A stretch of 64,000 nucleotides of DNA, taken from positions 118,336 through 182,335 of the IMG/VR virus record IMGVR_UViG_3300028920_000027; one strand, written 5' to 3'. Every line of letters starts with the position of its first letter. The stretch's first letter is position 1. Below are positions 1 to 29,597 of the stretch, one piece after another. The stretch is from a virus. The position numbers and the translations under genes are program-made. Below the pieces are notes generated by a model. The model was not told where the DNA came from. It ran no database searches and saw only the letters and a list, made by a program, of their open reading frames with translations.

Positions 1-2
1 CG

Positions 3-344
3 GAAGGTGAGTGGACCTTCGACCAGGGGTCCGCATGCTACAAAGACACTGTGTCCATGAGGGCACGCACCAAAAAGGTACCGAAGCCCATCACCCTGTG
101 TGAAGCTACGAAGGAACACCCAGCCCAGGTTCAGCTTGCCCACGAGGACATCATTGTTGGCTACTGGCATCAAACCGCACTCTCCGGGGCCATCCCCCGT
201 ACGCGTGCACAAGAGCTGCGAGACAGGGTTGAAACCTTGTTGGCGGCCATCAAAACAGCGCGGGAAACCGCCAACCACGTCGAGGCCCCGAAGAAAGAAG
301 CGGGTGCCGTGATCTTCCGCTACCTTTTCCGGAAGGAAAGCTAA
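3..344 (+). CDS. Conserved hypothetical protein, 5'-truncated by the window edge (resembles the family I recall as DUF7873)
   Basis: Frame is open from base 3 (EGEWTFDQGSACYKDT..RTKKVPKP..EATKEHPAQV..EDIIVGYW..SGAIP). Family name is from memory only. Confidence 0.65.
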   Translation, partial: EGEWTFDQGSACYKDTVSMRARTKKVPKPITLCEATKEHPAQVQLAHEDIIVGYWHQTALSGAIPRTRAQELRDRVETLLAAIKTARETANHVEAPKKEAGAVIFRYLFRKES

Positions 345-412
345 CCTGCCTCCGTGGTGGCAACCCCTTACCCAAGGAGGTTCATCTACATCCTGCTGCG
401 ACCCCAACAAGG

Positions 413-450
413 GGTACCGGGGGGGCTTTTAGGCCCCTGAGGATTTCAAC
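413..450 (+). CRISPR. Solitary CRISPR repeat (array-1 type)
   Basis: GGTACCGGGGGGGCTTTTAGGCCCCTGAGGATTTCAAC versus array-1 consensus GGTACCAGGGGCTTCTAGRCCCCTGAGGATTTCAAC. The last 20 nt match exactly; no second repeat follows. Confidence 0.85.
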
Positions 451-868
451 AAGACTACCTAAGCTGAAGCTAAGACTGAGACTGACGACCCTTGGAGTTA
501 AGTGTTGGTTCGATCCCAGCCCCGCCGACCGAGTCCCGCGGGCTCCTTCCCCGGATTGAGTCCCGGGCTCTCACCCTCTCATCGGCGGGTAGCCCAATCT
601 GGCAGAGGCACTCCGTAGCCGGGTCTACCTGATGCCTGAGACTTGGTAGAAAGCTGACCAAAAGCGGTGGTCTCGCTCATCGACCGTTACCTCGACAATC
701 TTCGTGGATGTGGGTTCAAGTCCCTCCGGGCCAGCTCTGTCGAGTAGGGTCCGAACCACCCCCTCCCCCTTGGGTGGCTCCTTACTCGGCAGAGCTGGCC
801 TGTAGCTCAATGGCAGAGCACACGAACTTTAGATCTGATCGAGGTCGACCCTGTGGAGCAGTAGTCTT
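451..868 (+). ncRNA. Structured RNA with two tandem circularly permuted tRNA-like modules (YrlA/Y-RNA-like architecture)
   Basis: Module 1 (494-614): T-arm 504-520, acceptor-like helix 521-528/582-589, D-arm 592-609, GGAGT/ACTCC closing stem. Module 2 (701-826): T-arm 710-726, ~23-bp helix 727-749/780-802, D-arm 805-819, TTCGTG/CACGAA closing stem. AAGACTAC (451-458) pairs with GTAGTCTT (861-868). Confidence 0.75.
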
Positions 869-1027
869 CGGACTGAGACCAAACCGAACATCAATCCTAA
901 TACGACTGATCACAGAACCCGGGGAGCCGGCTATGCTCCTCGGGTTCGCCTATTTTGAGGACCGCGATGTTCAGGCTCGCCAAAAGTTGTTGACAGGGTG
1001 GGGAGTGGGGACTACAACAATCCCCAC

Positions 1028-1878: not shown

Positions 1879-1952
1879 GTCCCCGTAGCTCAATCTGGCA
1901 GAGCACCCGCTTCTAGTTCGGGTTGTTGCAGGTTCAATTCCTGTCGGGGGCC
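1879..1952 (+). tRNA. tRNA with CUA anticodon (amber-suppressor type)
   Basis: Cloverleaf: acceptor GTCCCCG/CGGGGGC, D-arm GCTC-AATCTGGCA-GAGC, anticodon arm CCCGC-TTCTAGT-TCGGG (31-39 mismatch), T-arm GCAGG-TTCAATT-CCTGT. Followed by CCCCA, so CCA is one base out of register. Confidence 0.75.
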
Positions 1953-1955
1953 CCC

Positions 1956-20957: not shown

Positions 20958-22742
20958 GGTACCAGGGGCTTCTAGGCCCCTGAGGATTTCAACCTCTCGA
21001 CTTGCCTCACTCAGAGCAGCCAGGGAAGGGGGTACCAGGGGCTTCTAGGCCCCTGAGGATTTCAACTTCGACTACATCGTCGTTGCGGTAGAGGGTGATA
21101 CGAGGTACCAGGGGCTTCTAGGCCCCTGAGGATTTCAACCCGTTCTTCATCCTTCGCACCACCTCACCCGCCCCCGGGTACCAGGGGCTTCTAGACCCCT
21201 GAGGATTTAAACAGAAGCAAGAAGGCGCCTGAGCCAACTGCGGCGCGGTACCAGGGGCTTCTAGACCCCTGAGGATTTCAACACGCACGTCAATGCGCCA
21301 ATCGCAAGCGACCCGAAGAGGTACCAGGGGCTTCTAGACCCCTGAGGATTTCAACATCGCCAAGCTACGGGAAGAGCTCAAGCGCGCCGAGGGTACCAGG
21401 GTCTTCTAGACCCCTGAGGATTTCCTCGGGCTCTTCTTCTTTCCGGACGTCACCGACGGTACCAGGGGCTTCTAGGTCCCTGAGGATTTCAACTGCCTCG
21501 GTACCAGGGGCTTCTAGACCCCTGAGGATTTCAACTAGGCGATCAGGAAGTCGTCGCCGACGCGCATGAAAAGAGTACCAGGGGCTTCTAGACCCCTGAG
21601 GATTTCAACAGGATGGAGGAGAACTAGGGGCTTATAGACCCCTGAGGATTTCAACACTCTTGAGTGCCTCAAGCACTGCCGCGTTCGACGGTACCGCGTT
21701 CGACGGTACCAGGGGCTTCTAGACCCCTGAGGATTTCAACGCCTTCCGAGCATCGAGCAGAACTTCGCGATGGTACCAGGGGCTTTCTAGGCCCCTGAGG
21801 ATTTCAACGATCAGGCGCTGGGACAAGCAGGGATGCCCCTCGGTGGGGTACCAGGGGCTCCAGGCCCCTGAGGATTTCAACAGCGTGTTCAAGAAGACGT
21901 AGGGAACCCCTTGGTGGGTACCAGGGGCTTCCAGGCCCCTGAGGATTTCAACCTGCTGCTAATAGGTCAAAAGGGTCCAGTATCTCCGCAGATATCAGGG
22001 TCTTCTAGACCCCTGAGGATTTCAACGAGTATTGAAACGCACTTGGCCACTGGCTCCTTCTAGGGTACCAGGGTCTTCTAGACCCCTGAGGATTTCAACC
22101 TGTCGTGGCCGGCGGCCGTTGCGAGTTCGCCGGGTGGTACCAGGGGTTTCTAGACCCCTGAGGATTTCAACGTCAGTGTCCAGGGCCGACATGAGCCCCT
22201 TGGGTACCAGGGGCTTCTAGACCCCTGAGGATTTCAACGACTTCCTCGCCGAACTGCGAGAGGCGGTAGAGTAGGTACCAGGGGCTTCCAGGCCCCTGAG
22301 GATTTCAATGGGAGGACGCCAGTCTTCTTGAGTGCCTTTTTCGACGCAGTACCAGGGGCTTCTAGACCCCTGAGGATTTCAACGGATACACGACCCCCTG
22401 TGGGCCGAAATCGACAAGCTCGGTGGCACCAGGGGCTTCTAGGCCCCTGAGGATTTCAACAAGAAGCTCCAGGGCGATCCCGTGCCGGGCAGCACGGTAA
22501 GGGGCTTCTAGGCCCCTGAGGATTTCAACGAGTAGCCTCGGACAGGCTCAATCCCCATCAACGAGGGTATCAGGGGCTCCTAGACCCCTGAGGATTTCAA
22601 CCCACATGGGGCGTCGAGCCCGAGCGAGCGCCAGGTGGCACCAGGGCACGGCAAGGGGTCGGAACCGGGCTTCCAGGGGCTTCCACGACCGCTTTGACAG
22701 TCGAGGGGTACCAGGGGCACACAAGCCCCTGAGGATTCCAAG
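20958..22742 (+). CRISPR. CRISPR array 1, about 25 repeats of 36 nt (GGTACCAGGGGCTTCTAGRCCCCTGAGGATTTCAAC)
   Basis: Regular repeats with mostly 31-41-nt unique spacers; AGGGG/CCCCT hairpin; degeneration increases toward the 3' end. Confidence 0.98.
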
Positions 22743-22860: not shown

Positions 22861-23571
22861 ATGTACCCCACAACTGCAACGTTCGTCGTTGGGATCGACG
22901 GCGAGAGAGCTTGCTACTCCAACCCGGCGTTTCGCTCAGAACGCTACACATACCCCGTGATCACCCCACCGGCAGCGGCTGGCATCATGGACAACACTTG
23001 GTGGCGGCCGGGAGTACGGTGGGTCGTCGAACGAATCGACGTCTTGAAGCCGATCCAAACCTATACACAAACTGTCAACGAGATCAAGGTCTGCCCTCAG
23101 ACCTTGGAATCGGCTCTGAAATATCGGGTAGCAAAACTGCTACCGAGCTCTGAAGCAGTTCAGGTTCAAGGAGGGGTTAACATTGAAACCAATCGCACCT
23201 TGAGGCGCACCACGATGTTGTACGACGTATCATACAACATCTGGATGCGGGCTGTATGTGCCGACTGGAGGCTCGCCAAGAAAGCCGAAGCGAGCACCTG
23301 CCGCTTCCTTCTTTCCGGTCGTAGCTTCCGACCTCGATGCCTTGGGATGAGAGAGTTGGATGCCAAGGTACGGCTGGTCACTATGCTCGACCACGATGGG
23401 GTGGCCCACACTGACCTCCCTCGCCCCATCCCACTGACTCAGGACCTTGGGTGGATGGTACACAGCTACGTCTGGGAAAACGGCGTCCGCAAACAGGTCG
23501 GGTTGTTCCATGCCTACCTGAACGCTGGCACGCTACTCGTGCCCCCAGAACCAATGAGGATGGTGTCATGA
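22861..23571 (+). CDS. cas5: Type I-C-like Cas5 (Cas5c/Cas5d)
   Basis: ACYSNP..ERYTYPVITPPAAAGI..WWRPGVRWVVERIDVLKPI..NE..LGMRE. Confidence 0.9.
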   Translation: MYPTTATFVVGIDGERACYSNPAFRSERYTYPVITPPAAAGIMDNTWWRPGVRWVVERIDVLKPIQTYTQTVNEIKVCPQTLESALKYRVAKLLPSSEAVQVQGGVNIETNRTLRRTTMLYDVSYNIWMRAVCADWRLAKKAEASTCRFLLSGRSFRPRCLGMRELDAKVRLVTMLDHDGVAHTDLPRPIPLTQDLGWMVHSYVWENGVRKQVGLFHAYLNAGTLLVPPEPMRMVS

Positions 23572-24770
23572 TCCTAGAGACCTTGTATGAATTTGCCAAG
23601 CTGCATGGACTCGTGCCCAGCGTGCTTCGGAAACGACACGCCAATTACACTTTCCACCTCGATCCGAAGGGGTGTTTGCGTGAGTTCTCTGACGAGCGAC
23701 AAGTGATGGCAGACGCGAAGGCCAAACGGTCCAGCAATATCCAACCCAACTTGCTCGACAATGTGGGGTACACATTCGGTTTGGGCAAGCATGGACCCAA
23801 ACGACAGGAAGCCTGGTTGGAGGCCCTACGCGCCTTCAAGTCCATGGCGCCGGTTGCAACCTTCGCTCAAAAGCCTCTACCTGATGGCATCCTCAAGATT
23901 CTTGCCAAAAACTCGTCCAAGGTTGTGGCCTTCACCGTGGGAGGGGAGTCCCCCTATGAACACCCTGACATCGTTGAGCACCTGAACGCTCAAGAGGAAG
24001 GTGACTACATCTGCCGCATCACTGGACGGAGCTGTAGTCCAGGATTCGTCCCCAACATCAGCAACCTACCCCCCAACGGAAGCTTGCAGAACTTCGTGGG
24101 GTTCAATGCGTCCGCTACACAGTTCGATGGGCGTGAAAACAAATGCTGCTTTGTCATGCATCGCGAAGTTCGCGAAGGCATCATTGCAGCCATTGACCAT
24201 CTCGCGCGCTATGAGAACAAGGAGCGCCCGTCGGCCATCGTTGCAACGAAGCGCTTTCACTCCAAGAGTGAGGTAAACTCTGCTCGGAGTGGGCCCGTCC
24301 CCACGACTCTGCTCTTCTCCCTGGAACCAGAGTTCGACGTTAGCCCTCTGATGGTCCTGCTTAGGGGGTTGAGGTCAGAAGGGGAAACCCCAGAGGAACG
24401 ACTGGAGGAAGGTCGACAAGCTCATAAGGCTGCCCTGGAAACCCTGGTCTCATGGACGGGCTACTCTGGGGATCTCTATGCTCTGACCCTTTGCGCTGAC
24501 GGGGCCTGCCGACGGACGGCTGTACTGGACTTCACTACCATCCCTCTAGCAGAGATCCCGGCTCGGATGGAGTCGTTCACTCATGCATCTGGCCCGTACC
24601 CCCTACGCTGGCGGCTGGCCGAAATGCCCAACTACACGCTCGCGTGGCGCTTCATGCGGGCTGTCTTGGCCGGTGACCCTCTACCTCCCGCAATCCTGGC
24701 ACACGCACTTCGGCAGCCGCTCAAGAACGAGCAGCTGTTGACCACTCTCACAGCTTTTCAAAGCCTTTAG
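23568..24770 (+). CDS. cas8c: Cas8c-like large subunit lacking the C-terminal Cas11 domain
   Basis: MILETLYEF start; KRSSNIQPNLL-DNVGYTFG; C.ITG; located between cas5 and cas7. Confidence 0.8.
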   Translation: MILETLYEFAKLHGLVPSVLRKRHANYTFHLDPKGCLREFSDERQVMADAKAKRSSNIQPNLLDNVGYTFGLGKHGPKRQEAWLEALRAFKSMAPVATFAQKPLPDGILKILAKNSSKVVAFTVGGESPYEHPDIVEHLNAQEEGDYICRITGRSCSPGFVPNISNLPPNGSLQNFVGFNASATQFDGRENKCCFVMHREVREGIIAAIDHLARYENKERPSAIVATKRFHSKSEVNSARSGPVPTTLLFSLEPEFDVSPLMVLLRGLRSEGETPEERLEEGRQAHKAALETLVSWTGYSGDLYALTLCADGACRRTAVLDFTTIPLAEIPARMESFTHASGPYPLRWRLAEMPNYTLAWRFMRAVLAGDPLPPAILAHALRQPLKNEQLLTTLTAFQSL

Positions 24771-24784
24771 CCAAAGAGGACCTA

Positions 24785-25261
24785 ATGCCTGAAACCACCC
24801 CTGAAACCACCCCTGAAACCCCAACCACTCCGACCAATGGTCACAGGATTTCAGAAAAAAGGCTGGCCCAGCTAAGACACCCCAACCCGACCTTTCACCT
24901 GGGCCGTGCCATGGCTCGTGCTGTGGTCATCTACAGGTACGCGCAAGGCAGTGCCGCAGCAGCATCCCTGGAGAATAAGGTCGTGTCCGCGGGGTCTCGC
25001 CCCTTGGAAATCGTTACCCAGATTCTCAACCGGACTCAACGAGCCATCGCGTACTTGAGTCGTGGGGAGGCCCGCCAAGGGGCGGCAATCGACATCCATA
25101 ACTATGAAGAAGCAGTGGAGTTGATCGATGCCCAAGCGCTGCCCCGCACGTTCCAGGCGCAGGACCAGGTCCTGTTCTGGAACGGGTACAACAGCGAGAA
25201 GAATTGCATCCGCGCCCGACAACGTATTCAGGCTGCGGAATCGGCAAACAAAGGGGGCTAA
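24785..25261 (+). CDS. cas11: Stand-alone Cas11 small subunit (homolog of the Cas8c C-terminal domain)
   Basis: FHLGRAMA..P.EI..LPRTFQAQDQVLFWNGY resembles the Cas8c C-terminus; own RBS (AGAGGA); different frame from cas8c. Confidence 0.75.
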   Translation: MPETTPETTPETPTTPTNGHRISEKRLAQLRHPNPTFHLGRAMARAVVIYRYAQGSAAAASLENKVVSAGSRPLEIVTQILNRTQRAIAYLSRGEARQGAAIDIHNYEEAVELIDAQALPRTFQAQDQVLFWNGYNSEKNCIRARQRIQAAESANKGG

Positions 25262-25333
25262 CTCTCCCTGCGGATTGACTCTCACCATCAGGGGCGACCC
25301 TGCGGATTGACCCAAATGTAAATGTGGAGAAAA

Positions 25334-26335
25334 ATGACTAAGACAACTACGACTAAGGCAACTACTCTTCCCGCCCTCGATGGACTTTTGGTAATCGAGG
25401 CCCACAACGACGCCCTCAATATCGACCCCGATGTCGGAGTGCCCCGCACCAACCCCATCTCGGGAAAGGGGGAGGTTAGCGCTGAATGCATAAAGGCCAA
25501 AATCCGGCGGTCCGCTATGCGGCTCAACCCGACTTTGGTGCCGTTCTACCACCGTGGCGCCGTCCACCAGGACCACATCGAGCAGGCATACGAAGCTGCC
25601 GGCGCCATCGTCAAGACTGCGAAGAAGGCGTCCAAGAAGACTGCGAAGGCTGAGGCCCCCGACATCGAGGATACTGAGGCCCCCGACACCGAGGATGCCG
25701 AGGATAACACCATCACGATCGACACCATCAAAGGCAACGCCGAGCTGTGCCGCATCTTCTTCGACGTCTCTTGGTTTGGACTGGTGGTCACCAAGCCGGG
25801 TCGCGGTCAGATCCGGGGACCATTCTCATTCGGGATTGGCGAGACCGTCTATCCTGTGAATCTGGATGAGCGCCTCCTGACCCGCCAGACGGTCACCAAC
25901 CGAGAACGGTCAGACAAGCAGAAGGGTGCCAACCAGGAGTTCGGACGCAAGACCGTTGTGACCCATGGGGTCTACCTCGTACACTGGCACTTCGACCCCT
26001 TCTGCGCCGACCAGAACGGGCTCACGGAGCAGGACCTGGCGGAGTTCATCGAGGCCATGCTCCACATGTTCCGCAACGACCAGTCGTCAGCACGGAACAA
26101 CGTGACACTGCGGAAGGCTTATGTCTTCGAGCACGCGAGTCCCTTCCGGGACGCCGAACCGGTCGAGCTTTTAGAGCAAATCAAGGTCACGGCCGAGAAC
26201 CCCGACACCGCGGTCTCTTGGGACGCCTACACAGTCGAGGTCCCGGCAGACTTGCCTGAGACGATCAAGCTCCACGTCCTCAAGGACGGCCTCACCATCA
26301 ACAATCCCTGGGTCAAGGCATCCGCTGCCGAATAA
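25334..26335 (+). CDS. cas7: Type I-C-like Cas7 (Csd2 family)
   Basis: NDALNIDPDVGVPRTNPISGKGEVSAECIKAKIRR..FFDVSWFG..GQIRGPFSF..FGRKTVVTHGVY..MFRNDQSSAR. Confidence 0.92.
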   Translation: MTKTTTTKATTLPALDGLLVIEAHNDALNIDPDVGVPRTNPISGKGEVSAECIKAKIRRSAMRLNPTLVPFYHRGAVHQDHIEQAYEAAGAIVKTAKKASKKTAKAEAPDIEDTEAPDTEDAEDNTITIDTIKGNAELCRIFFDVSWFGLVVTKPGRGQIRGPFSFGIGETVYPVNLDERLLTRQTVTNRERSDKQKGANQEFGRKTVVTHGVYLVHWHFDPFCADQNGLTEQDLAEFIEAMLHMFRNDQSSARNNVTLRKAYVFEHASPFRDAEPVELLEQIKVTAENPDTAVSWDAYTVEVPADLPETIKLHVLKDGLTINNPWVKASAAE

Positions 26336-26383: not shown

Positions 26384-26403
26384 TGTAGTTTTTGGGAACG
26401 TTC

Positions 26404-28917
26404 ATGAGATTCCGACACTATCAGATTCACGGATTCAGCGCGGCGACGAGTCGTCGTTGGCGTTTCATCTACCTATGCTGGGCTGTAGCTTCCGGTAAGA
26501 CAGCGTTCACCCATGCCTACCTGGCCGAAGTTTTCCGCAACGGCTGGCACTCGCACGCAGTCATTGTGGGGCCCTACGAGCCCATCCGCAACGGGTTCGA
26601 CACCAGCAAACTGGGTGACGATAAGCGCGAGTTCTGCATGGGGGGTGTCACTGTCCGGGCTTGGGCAGGGATGGTTCGAGAGTTGAAGAGAGGGTCCTCC
26701 CAAGCCGGCCAAGCCGGCCGCATTGAGTCGACCGTTCGGGAGTTGGTCAGCTACTTGCTGAACCCTCGCCCCACGGATGAAGCCACGGGAAGGCCTTACG
26801 CTGTCAGCGTGTGTACGCAGACAGCTCTTCAGTTAATCCTTCATATGGACCAGCTACCGGCTGACATGAGTCACGTGCTGTTCGTCATCGACGAAGCTCA
26901 GGGTATCGGTGCTGACTGTACCAACCGTGTCGTGAACACCCTGATTTCTCGGGGAACTCGCTTCATCCTTGCATCGGGGTCACCGTACCGGGACGACAAC
27001 CGAAATGTCCTCCCCGACCCCAATGACCCAGATGTTCTCATTCTCTCCCGGTCTCTGGCAGAGCAGATTCACGAGGGGTATGCCCCTCGTGTTAAGTTCG
27101 AGGTCGAGGTCGTTGACTGCGATGGGGACACCTATGAGTCCCGTCAGCAGCAGATGATCGACCATGTGGTGGCCGACTTCCAACCTGGCCAGAAGAAAGT
27201 CATCCGTGCTGTCCCTGCGCGGGGTGCCATGTACGACAGGGACGGTGAGGATGCCGATGCCGATGACTTCTCGGAGAACGTCGATGACGTGAGAGTAGGG
27301 GTGCGACTCCGGGACCTGGCGCTCAGGGCTTTTACTGAAAGGGGTTTACGATTTCGGGATGCCACGAGCTACCCAGGCAACCACGGCGACGACTGGCTGG
27401 AGTCCGAGCGTCGGGTTCGCGACTTCAATGATTCGGAAGTTGATGTGGTGTGGGGGATCAACCGCATCTACTGCGGCATGGATTGGGCTCTGGCGAACAC
27501 AGTGTGCTGCCTAGACTTCCCCACGACTTTACCCTTGATCGTCCAGCTCCTCGGGCGTGGCATGAGGTACAAGGGCGGCCGGCACGGAGGTGGGTATGCC
27601 AACTACCCGGAGCAGTACCTCGAACGGACGCTTCTCAAAATCTACGTTCCCGGCCGACGTGACGGAAGTGAGCGCTTCTTTCGGCACGACATGGCCCAGG
27701 TAGCTGTCAAGATCGGAGCTGTCCTCGCCACAGTAGCTCTCCCGGACGGCTTGACCGCCAAGCTGGATATGCACCGAGCTTTGAGGTCCCCTCTCAGCGA
27801 CGCTTCGGTCGTCGAAGGCACTGGTAGGGGGAGTGCCAACGAAAGCGAGATCGCCGAAGCCGCTAGTCAACACTTCATGATCCACTACGGACGGCGGGAG
27901 TGCACCGTTGGTGAAGCTCGTGATCAGCTCATGCGTGCATACCGCATTCGTCGCCAAAGGCAGGGTCTCGAGGTGTCGGATGAAGACGTGGAGGCAATCA
28001 ACCTCTTACTCCACCGTTTCATCAGCGAACGCAACGAACGAAACCCGTTGGATCGTGAAAGCCAGCGACGCATGGGAGAAGCCCATGACCGCGCCGTTGA
28101 AGCCGCTGCTCGACGCCATCCCCACAACCCGAGACGGTTGGTACAGGAAGCCTATCGCCGCGTGATTGACGAGTACAGCGAGATGCGGATCGTAACCGCT
28201 GAATCACCTCTTCTCAGCACCATTGTGCGATTCGTGATCGACCTCGACGATGGGACAGCAGGCGGCATTGCACAAAGGTTGGAACAAGAGTCTCGACCTC
28301 TACATGAGCAAGCTGTGCGCCACTGGGCTATGGCCTACTGGACCAACAACGGAGCCTTCCCTGACACCGACAGTGGCCCCGTCCAGGAAGACCCTCGCGA
28401 AGATTGGTCTCGCGTCATTGCCGCTTTACAAGGGGGTTATCGAGGACTACCCTCACACCCTTCTGTGGAAGACCTGGTGCGTTCCCATCAGATGAGTGAT
28501 GGCGACGTGTTGCATCTATTCAGGCTCTGCCCCGACTTATTGCCATCGGACTTGACGGTGGGGTGGACGTCAGACGTGAGTCTGCAATTCTACTACGATC
28601 GGTACCGAGACATGAGGCGCACCGCCGAGGCGTTACCTCCACACACTTGGAATAGGCTCGTTGACTACTTGCTCCAGCAATCAACCATTCGGCTGGGCTC
28701 CCTGTTGAACCTATTTCGAGAAACTCCAGTGACAGTTGACCTTCGGGCCCGACGGCCCTGGTATCTGTTCTGGCACTCCGTGAGCCGCGCTTCTTCGGAA
28801 GGTAGGGACCTCGACCTGCGGACATTGCGAACCTGGATTCGACGGGTTCGCAATGGAGCTGTCTCTATTGGCCAGGTCTACGACGACGACAGTTCAGCTA
28901 CCACCGTAGTGGTGTAA
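26404..28917 (+). CDS. SF2 helicase (DEAQ) with no HD nuclease domain and a long uncharacterised C-terminus, in the cas3 position
   Basis: Motif I AVASGKT within the first ~35 aa; II VIDEAQ; III SGSPYRDD; VI QLLGRGMR. Confidence 0.85.
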   Translation: MRFRHYQIHGFSAATSRRWRFIYLCWAVASGKTAFTHAYLAEVFRNGWHSHAVIVGPYEPIRNGFDTSKLGDDKREFCMGGVTVRAWAGMVRELKRGSSQAGQAGRIESTVRELVSYLLNPRPTDEATGRPYAVSVCTQTALQLILHMDQLPADMSHVLFVIDEAQGIGADCTNRVVNTLISRGTRFILASGSPYRDDNRNVLPDPNDPDVLILSRSLAEQIHEGYAPRVKFEVEVVDCDGDTYESRQQQMIDHVVADFQPGQKKVIRAVPARGAMYDRDGEDADADDFSENVDDVRVGVRLRDLALRAFTERGLRFRDATSYPGNHGDDWLESERRVRDFNDSEVDVVWGINRIYCGMDWALANTVCCLDFPTTLPLIVQLLGRGMRYKGGRHGGGYANYPEQYLERTLLKIYVPGRRDGSERFFRHDMAQVAVKIGAVLATVALPDGLTAKLDMHRALRSPLSDASVVEGTGRGSANESEIAEAASQHFMIHYGRRECTVGEARDQLMRAYRIRRQRQGLEVSDEDVEAINLLLHRFISERNERNPLDRESQRRMGEAHDRAVEAAARRHPHNPRRLVQEAYRRVIDEYSEMRIVTAESPLLSTIVRFVIDLDDGTAGGIAQRLEQESRPLHEQAVRHWAMAYWTNNGAFPDTDSGPVQEDPREDWSRVIAALQGGYRGLPSHPSVEDLVRSHQMSDGDVLHLFRLCPDLLPSDLTVGWTSDVSLQFYYDRYRDMRRTAEALPPHTWNRLVDYLLQQSTIRLGSLLNLFRETPVTVDLRARRPWYLFWHSVSRASSEGRDLDLRTLRTWIRRVRNGAVSIGQVYDDDSSATTVVV

Positions 28918-28920
28918 GGT

Positions 28921-29026
28921 AGCGAGGGGTTCGGTGATACCGAAACCCCCAACACCTCTCGCAGCCCAAATTTTCAAGGGGGTTCCCACCCCCTTGGTCT
29001 TTGACAGCACATAACCGCTCGCATCC
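28921..29026 (+). promoter_or_regulatory. Leader of CRISPR array 2
   Basis: GCGAGGGG..ACCCCC..ACCTCTCGCA and CAAGGGGGT..CTTTGACA, as in leader 1. Confidence 0.6.
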
Positions 29027-29597
29027 CAATTCTTGCCCTTGAGGATTCCAACAGCTCCTCCAGAACACCCGGGGCGAGTCGGCCGTACAGGAACAAGGGC
29101 AATTCTTGCCCTTGAGGATTCCAACCACAACTTCGAGTTGGTTCACTACGGGGAGGGGCAAGGGCAATTCTTGCCCTTGAGGATTCCAACCATGGTTCGG
29201 CGAACGAACTTGCATTTCTCGTACTGCGGGACAAGGGCAATTCTTGCCCTTGAGGATTCCAATGATCTGCTGTGAGACAAAGCTAAAATGCCCTCTCTGA
29301 AACAAGGGCAGTTGCCCTTGAGGATTCCAACATCGCCCACGAGACCAAGGCAGACTTCGACGAATGGCAAGACAAGGGCAGTCCATGCCCTGAGGATTCC
29401 AACGTGGCTCCCGCGACCCGGTCGAACACCTCGAGGAAGGAGACAGTCTTGGCCCTTGAGGATTCCAACCTGCGGTAATGGCACAAGCAGACGTTTTACC
29501 GTCGTGAGACAAGGGCCTTGCCCTTGAGGATTCCAACATCCAAAACCACTCTGGGAGCTACGGCTACATCGTATGTGTCTTTGCCCTTGAGGATTCA
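29027..29597 (+). CRISPR. CRISPR array 2, 9 repeats (core ACAAGGGCAATTCTTGCCCTTGAGGATTCCAAC)
   Basis: First repeat 5'-truncated, later repeats degenerate; 8 unique spacers of roughly 33-40 nt. Confidence 0.95.

Follow-up and report, generated by a model that had tools for sequence, protein, structure and literature searches.

Two copies of a phage's own CRISPR repeat bracket a conserved DUF7873 gene beside a double tRNA-like RNA and may serve as Cas5c processing sites

The DNA analysed here, hereafter the window, comprises the last 64 kb (64,000 nt) of a 182,335-bp virus record in IMG/VR (IMGVR_UViG_3300028920_000027), which is linear, is estimated to be 38% complete and probably represents a fragment of a huge phage. 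We also fetched the flanking sequence upstream of the window (L001), and negative window numbers denote bases before position 1. Spanning the left edge of the window is a plus-strand gene for a 246-aa DUF7873 protein (L001 5604-6344, equal to window -396..344, of which 1..344 lies inside the window; full-length match to Pfam PF25283, E 1.9e-86), and on each side of it we find a plus-strand copy of the repeat that makes up the phage's own CRISPR array 1. Copy A (window -452..-417, L001 5549-5584) is placed 20 nt before the DUF7873 ATG, and copy B (413..450) follows the gene and directly precedes a large structured RNA composed of two tRNA-like domains. The initial annotation of this DNA had recognised copy B and stated that there was no second repeat; copy A, located 867 nt upstream of copy B and just beyond the window edge, overturns that point.

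A promoter-like motif, GGTGTACAGT (window -519..-510, plus strand), lies about 60 nt before copy A. In its general form, GGTGTAnArT, the motif occurs 24 times in the genome record (13 copies on the plus and 11 on the minus strand) against an estimated expectation of ~1.4 per strand or ~3 in total, and judged by its sequence it is likely a phage-specific promoter element. Examples are the sites at window -519, 1842, 9999, 11836, 19245 and 29618; the sites usually lie just upstream of genes, including an amber suppressor tRNA. At the other end of the unit is a terminal hairpin (915..955 on the plus strand, with the hairpin proper at 915-947) that has the conserved loop GCCGGCTAYGC and a U-rich tail, and that is the only terminator-like site on the unit's plus strand. 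Because a second repeat lies upstream, and because there is one promoter-like motif before the unit and one terminator-like hairpin behind it, with nothing of either kind between, we predict a single transcript that runs from the promoter through a ~60-nt leader, repeat A, DUF7873, repeat B and the double tRNA-like RNA to the terminator. Both copies are in the sense orientation of this predicted transcript and sit at functional boundaries, so placed that neither the gene nor the RNA is disrupted.

Copy B consists of a stem (421-426/433-438), a loop (427-432) and an 11-nt 3' handle (440-450), and by analogy with Cas5c biochemistry (PMC8524198) a Cas5c cut is predicted between 439 and 440. Its earlier assignment to the array-1 repeat family (consensus GGTACCAGGGGCTTCTAGRCCCCTGAGGATTTCAAC) holds up well, in that a 39-mer search returned one match compared with none in 100 shuffles, and a profile made from the array repeats scores the copy at 34 bits (E 4e-9). 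Relative to the array consensus, copy B has a 2-nt insertion (GG) in the 5' stem strand, one stem base changed from A to G with pairing retained as G-U, and one loop change, and its final 17 bases are those of the consensus, including the 11-nt handle AGGATTTCAAC (11/11 identical). Copy A scores 39 bits (E 1e-10) with the same profile; its final 11 bases likewise equal the array consensus, with the handle AGGATTTCAAC intact, and its end is followed after 12 nt by a GAGGA ribosome-binding site. The hairpin of copy B is present in both the minimum-energy and the centroid folds of the surrounding 556 nt, in line with the intact hairpin and handle described initially, and that of copy A is present in both folds of the transcript. 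A pairing of the copy-A handle with the ribosome-binding site was also predicted, but it is weak (fold z-score -0.27) and we set it aside. Within the 182 kb, A and B are the sole significant repeat copies outside the arrays, the next match scoring below 10 bits.

The base pair beside the predicted cut is altered in both copies, in copy A by a G-to-A change opposite C6 and in copy B by the GG insertion, which removes the pair, and it is also missing in a few of the array repeats. By analogy with the Cas5c of B. halodurans, in which stem-base mutations impair cleavage (PMC8524198), these changes could weaken Cas5c cleavage of A and B. The handles are unchanged at 22/22 positions, but this is not statistically significant, with an estimated probability of ~0.16 that five changes would all fall outside 22 of 72 positions. 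The interval between the two copies is 831 nt and includes a 246-codon gene, and it matches neither regular array spacing nor a viral mini-array, in which the spacer between repeats has the usual length. As is expected of solitary repeat units and RNA anti-CRISPRs (Racr), each copy is intergenic, with every other repeat over 100 nt away, though here the two share one predicted transcript.

The conserved block of the structured RNA begins at 451-453 in all relatives, and copy B therefore ends 0-2 nt before it, which bears out the earlier view that the repeat abuts the 5' end of this RNA. The RNA is built of two tRNA-like domains that both possess a T arm, a D arm and an acceptor stem capped by a loop, and that are open where a tRNA would have its anticodon loop. 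In domain I (451..649, plus strand) the inter-domain linker (639-647) forms a helix with a 5' block (458-465), the T arm is at 504-520, and RNAalifold together with pair counts in nine relatives gives a capped acceptor stem (521-528/582-589) and a D-arm-like stem (592-594/601-603). Domain II (672..877, plus strand) has an outer helix (672-677/872-877) and inner helices (686-693/840-860 and 701-706/821-826), along with a T arm (710-726), a long capped acceptor helix (727-748/781-802) and a D arm (805-819). The consensus structure of nine diverged members comprises 83 pairs with 95.7% of cells paired, and 52/83 of the pairs show compensatory changes; these values were reached by 0/500 shuffles, and slid controls gave 36-48% pairing.

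The initial annotation had this RNA closed by a helix between AAGACTAC (451-458) and GTAGTCTT (861-868). The two strands are exactly complementary and the helix occurs in the minimum-energy fold, but it is absent from the centroid, and its columns pair in 33% of cells across nine RNAs, compared with a shuffled mean of 37.6%, such that it does not stand as the closing helix of the RNA. Instead the 5' block at 458-465 is paired with the inter-domain linker in 86% of cells in the nine-sequence alignment; we decided its partner by alignment pair counts, single-sequence RNAduplex energies being indecisive. The proposed 3' partner GTAGTCTT (861..868, plus strand) may alternatively fold into a local AGUC-UUCG-GACU hairpin. 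Because the outer helix 672-677/872-877 is fully covarying and a conserved terminal hairpin (918-944) follows domain II, the comparison places the RNA from ~451-453 to ~955, and not to 868. YrlA-type Y RNAs of bacteria and phages are bound by Ro60/Rsr (RF02553; Chen et al. [quoted passage not shown] 2014, PMC4201824). The RNA described here shares with them the T and D arms, the acceptor stems capped by a loop and the opening on the anticodon side. However, the phage RNA has two such domains within ~500 nt, and its match to YrlA is weak (32.2 bits against a gathering score of 69, at 680-851 in domain II; 28.9 bits in the genome search). It also has a constant partner in DUF7873, and neither Ro60/Rsr (TROVE domain) nor RtcB was found in the 182-kb record, which covers 38% of the genome.

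The AlphaFold2 model of DUF7873 is confident (pLDDT 91.3), and a Foldseek search of the PDB gave no match at E <= 0.001. A likeness to the Cas7 fold was considered and given no weight, as it appeared only in weak Foldseek rows with TM 0.10-0.15 and rmsd >25 Å, and the best VIA-align score (Z 7.6) was to generic helical proteins, so that no fold is assigned. The protein has no PHROGs or PADLOC match and corresponds to no recognised Acr, and our literature search found no paper that mentions DUF7873. A protein search identified 294 homologues at E <= 0.001, and 243 viral loci. In at least 57 of 86 loci the RNA lies directly behind the DUF7873 gene (nhmmer profile, four seeds), and it could be seen by eye in four further metagenomic loci. 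The gene and the double tRNA-like RNA (~400-500 nt) thus form a conserved module of ~90 loci with strong covariation and with no Rfam family, and this gene-RNA module was not found in the literature that we searched.

The source family of A and B is CRISPR array 1 (20958..22742, plus strand), which has 26 repeat units when counted by a 17-nt core, 25 of them full-length, and which starts 20.5 kb away from copy B, consistent with the ~20 kb given initially. Array 1 is irregular in that some spacers measure 6, 10, 49 or 105 nt, some repeats are truncated, and the loop/stem occurs in two variants (TAGG and TAGA), a pattern that in sequence terms suggests rearrangement rather than orderly acquisition. 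Downstream of it follow cas5c, a split cas8c, a cas11-like ORF, cas7, a gene for an 841-aa helicase-like protein and CRISPR array 2 (29017..29537, plus strand), the repeats of which have a different stem and a near-identical handle, GAGGATTCCAAC; in total the phage arrays hold ~34 repeats. The two parts of cas8c (window 23451-25261) are a 439-aa ORF resembling Csd1 15-412 and a separate 158-aa ORF resembling Csd1 450-556. In canonical I-C systems the C-terminal part of Csd1 is the small subunit (Cas11c). The protein in the position of Cas3 (window 26392-28917, 841 aa) only weakly matches Helicase_C and is not recognised as Cas3 by PADLOC. The 182-kb record yielded no cas1, and the system looks like one that is adaptation-less and possibly without Cas3.

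The cas5c gene (22861..23571, plus strand) encodes the predicted pre-crRNA endonuclease, with matches to PADLOC Cas5c (E 7.6e-31) and to PDB 3KG4 (Cas5d, E 1.6e-24). Only the Lys of the Cas5c catalytic triad is invariant (PMC8524198), and in our alignment this Lys is retained (it aligns with the K of the K-H pair), with Trp at the Tyr position and Lys at the His position, two residues that are not among the triad substitutions listed in PMC8524198. Family membership and the invariant Lys thus mark the protein at 22861, already called a Cas5 by the initial annotation, as a true Cas5c/Cas5d with predicted endonuclease activity. Cas5c is known to read the hairpin base, the cut site and the 3' flank of a repeat, and not its loop or 5' flank (PMC8524198), and a solitary type I-C repeat suffices for Cas5c processing, leaving an 11-nt handle, and for Cascade loading (bioRxiv 10.1101/2024.12.27.630466). 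Within the cas operon, between the cas11-like ORF and cas7, we also noted two tandem degenerate repeat-like units (25252..25311, plus strand), each a hairpin (G/C) followed by G-CGGATTGAC. They share the exact 14-mer CCCTGCGGATTGAC, are ~10 nt apart, which is too close for a guide, and resemble the standalone repeats and mini-arrays that occur in cas loci (Shmakov et al. 2023, PMC10120712) in lying inside a cas operon. The second unit ends 22 nt before the likely cas7 ATG at 25334, a spacing that echoes the 20 nt between copy A and DUF7873 and that suggests a tendency of this phage to place repeat-derived elements in mRNA leaders.

For the evolutionary comparison we searched 86 related loci (L002-L086 and the window's genome) and judged four more (L239-L242) by eye. 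A direct repeat that brackets the gene scored in the window's genome alone, the other top rows of the 86 being T-arm similarities, and the four later loci show no repeat around the gene. On the linkage of the repeat to the RNA in related phages, a point that the initial annotation raised as a check, the RNA is conserved and the repeat is present in none of the ~90 loci. Cas7 is absent from five large relatives, three of which are at least 90% complete. The 17-nt repeat core has no match in viral contigs and single matches, at about the chance number, in metagenome and genome contigs; a degenerate 16-mer that spans the repeats of both arrays likewise gave single matches only in the collections searched. 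We found no array with the phage repeat elsewhere in the viral, metagenome and genome collections and no host array, and copies A and B are known from one genome, with no relative found that has the same CRISPR system.

With 68% protein identity, L004 is the closest relative, and it has the same order of elements as the window, namely tRNAs, the GGTGTATAGT motif, DUF7873, the RNA, the terminal hairpin and an HTH gene, with neither repeat. Alignment with it shows an insertion of 68 nt at B (383-450), which lies between the RNA and an ancestral intergenic segment common to both genomes (345..382, plus strand, after the stop codon and ending ...AAGGAGGTT). The first 30 nt of this insertion (383..412, plus strand) form a spacer-like segment that arrived together with copy B and that matches no array spacer and nothing elsewhere. 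At A the insertion is 85 nt, lies between the promoter and the ribosome-binding site, and includes a 15-nt tandem duplication at the repeat junction. In length, both insertions approximate a single spacer-plus-repeat unit of the array (period 66-74). In the relative, the stop codon is followed by a hairpin and then AGGCATCAAC, which we considered as a repeat remnant and rejected, as the stretch aligns with the ancestral intergenic segment of the window and not with the inserted unit. Because ~90 loci lack the repeats, five relatives lack Cas7 and no such array occurs elsewhere, the insertions are, on the genomes compared, co-occurrent with the CRISPR system and specific to the lineage that carries it.

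Our favoured interpretation, to which we give a probability of roughly 0.4, is that A and B are sites for the phage's own Cas5c, which would cleave the operon transcript to yield an mRNA and a free RNA. We favour it because of the orientation of the copies, their exact placement at boundaries, their co-occurrence with CRISPR, their intact handles and the parallel before cas7. On this proposal, array-derived spacer-plus-repeat units would have entered non-coding stretches of a DUF7873-RNA operon that is older and widely conserved, and Cas5c would cut there at the 3' base of each hairpin. Cleavage at A would remove a leader of ~85 nt, and the DUF7873 mRNA would be released with a 5'-OH and an 11-nt handle at its start and with the repeat-B hairpin and a 2',3'-cyclic phosphate at its end, and the tRNA-like RNA would be freed with an 11-nt handle at its 5' end. 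The message would in this way be uncoupled from the RNA, with the maturation of both tied to phage CRISPR expression, and bound Cas5c and Cas7 might link translation or stability to it as well. For the cas7 message, the repeat-like pair ahead of it may act likewise. With less confidence we can extend the proposal, and suggest tentatively that the CRISPR repeat is a general RNA punctuation in this phage, by which Cas5c, possibly with Cas7, processes or gates the transcripts of DUF7873, the tRNA mimic and cas7. If so, the phage would have linked the making of a tRNA-mimic ribonucleoprotein to its CRISPR machinery, Cas5c would have a function beyond immunity, and the arrangement would parallel in nature the operon insulators that have been engineered with Csy4.

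That the phage's own Cas5c might act within the repeat, about 11 nt before position 451, had been put forward in the initial annotation for copy B and the RNA. This core idea gains from the second copy at the mRNA leader, from the absence of the copies in ~90 relatives without such a CRISPR system and from the units before cas7. Its framing has to change, in that the repeat is not solitary, the supposed closing helix is not conserved, and the unit is a gene-plus-RNA operon rather than the RNA alone. Of the two alternatives named there, a Racr decoy has become less likely since the phage runs a matching system, and an ectopic relic stays a serious rival.

The main rival, which we consider unlikely but would not put far from mind, is that A and B are neutral relics, that is, one or two spacer-plus-repeat units that escaped a recombination-prone array into tolerant gaps, where they are transcribed and functionless. 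The unit-sized insertions (68 nt at B; 85 nt at A with its 15-nt duplication) are what such an escape would leave behind, and because array 1 is visibly prone to rearrangement, with truncated repeats, 'spacers' of 6 and 10 nt, and a 15-nt junction duplication like that before A, stray units could well be neutral. Consistent with this are the stem-base changes in both copies, and as no relative shares the copies there is no sign of purifying selection. Against it, two independent landings would have to flank one gene, both in sense and at exact boundaries, for which we roughly estimate a likelihood well under 1% with random intergenic insertion; the handles have stayed intact (22/22), and a further repeat-like pair lies at a similar distance from the cas7 start. 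The 15-nt tandem duplication itself, perfect or near-perfect, spans the spacer/repeat junction at L001 5521-5550 (window -480..-451) and in array 1 at 21679-21710, and may be a signature of how units get copied or moved.

We regard as improbable a second rival, in which the two hairpins act as Racr-like decoys, titrating Cas5c and Cas7 from the I-C system of a host or of a competitor, or buffering the one that the phage encodes. Solitary repeat units of phages do act as RNA anti-CRISPRs, and there is a close precedent in RacrIC1, which is transcribed together with acrIC5, 11 nt downstream of it, as a bicistronic RNA (Camara-Wilpert et al. 2023, PMC10651486), an order that resembles DUF7873 followed by repeat B. 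Similar to RacrIC1 and to viral solitary repeats in general, the copies described here are I-C-style phage repeats that are intergenic, more than 100 nt from other repeats, far from the array and, for copy B, directly behind a protein gene with which it would be co-transcribed, with hairpin and handle kept. However, Racr elements are expected in a phage that has no cas genes of its own and mimics a host repeat, and this phage has cas5c, cas8c, a cas11-like gene, cas7 and two arrays. A decoy would turn against the phage's own Cascade, given that the phage runs the matching system, and the ~34 array repeats already supply the same hairpins. Moreover, the two copies bracket a conserved gene that is not Acr-like: DUF7873 is a widespread partner of the RNA rather than an accessory gene, and it has no PADLOC match. 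The second copy abuts a large structured RNA, an inhibitory role is not evident, and no host with this repeat was found in the genome and metagenome collections.

A third possibility is that the RNA downstream of A or B enters Cascade via its handle and represses a partly matching promoter, similar to crRNA-like RNAs (crlRNA) or CreA. Standalone repeats are common regulators (PMC10120712), and type I-C crlRNAs from solitary repeats directly behind the genes that they regulate, which have an 11-nt handle and need no second repeat, repress defence-gene promoters (CRISIS/Nezha, bioRxiv 10.1101/2024.12.27.630466); the repeat right after DUF7873, with its expected Cas5c cut and 11-nt handle, is alike in these respects. 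Nevertheless we consider a guide function very improbable because no PAM-flanked partial target stands above chance in the 182 kb (38% of the genome), where the best TTC/TTA-flanked partial targets match at 11/15 compared with 10-12 for shuffled spacers, and there is no BLAST match of at least 13 nt and none by local alignment in the operon's own promoter region, the copies lie outside the cas operon and 21-22 kb from cas5c, unlike crlRNAs and CreA, and the sequences that would serve as 'spacers' are the conserved 5' strand of the structured RNA for B and the ribosome-binding region of the next gene for A. The array spacers and the four pseudo-spacers that flank A and B likewise gave only short chance matches in the genome record and in all fetched loci.

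That phages have solitary repeats, that such repeats are co-transcribed with genes and that Cas5c processes them is already in print. The difference here is that a conserved non-cas gene is framed by two copies of a phage's own repeat, and that these also adjoin a large tRNA-like RNA. Engineering offers a parallel to the processing sites that we favour, in that a 2012 report by Qi et al. in Nat Biotechnol is said to have insulated synthetic operons with CRISPR repeats cut by Csy4/Cas6f. In both cases repeats stand at the borders of a promoter leader, a coding sequence and the element that follows, and a Cas endoribonuclease would separate the parts; there, however, the design is engineered and the enzyme is Cas6f, whereas here it is natural, the enzyme would be Cas5c and cleavage is putative. 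Solitary repeats in phages are currently read as host-directed decoys or as small regulatory guides, and here the repeats belong to the phage's own system. If they are cut, a Cas endoribonuclease would have been recruited for ordinary operon processing, which would provide a natural and testable insulator design. The ~90 relatives that have the same operon without the repeats offer a clean evolutionary contrast, in which the effect of adding repeats is directly measurable.

Items related to translation are plentiful around the DUF7873 unit. They include an amber-suppressor-type tRNA with anticodon CUA (window 1879-1954), two neighbouring tRNAs (L001 5293-5446), for which ARAGORN calls an odd 4-base anticodon (tcta) and Leu(taa), and an ORF for a PTH2-like peptidyl-tRNA hydrolase (L001 4967-5302). 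In one of the loci fetched later (L239 3187-3738), a TnpB/Cas12f-like ORF (OrfB_IS605, Cas12f1-like_TNB) lies ~1 kb downstream of the module RNA.
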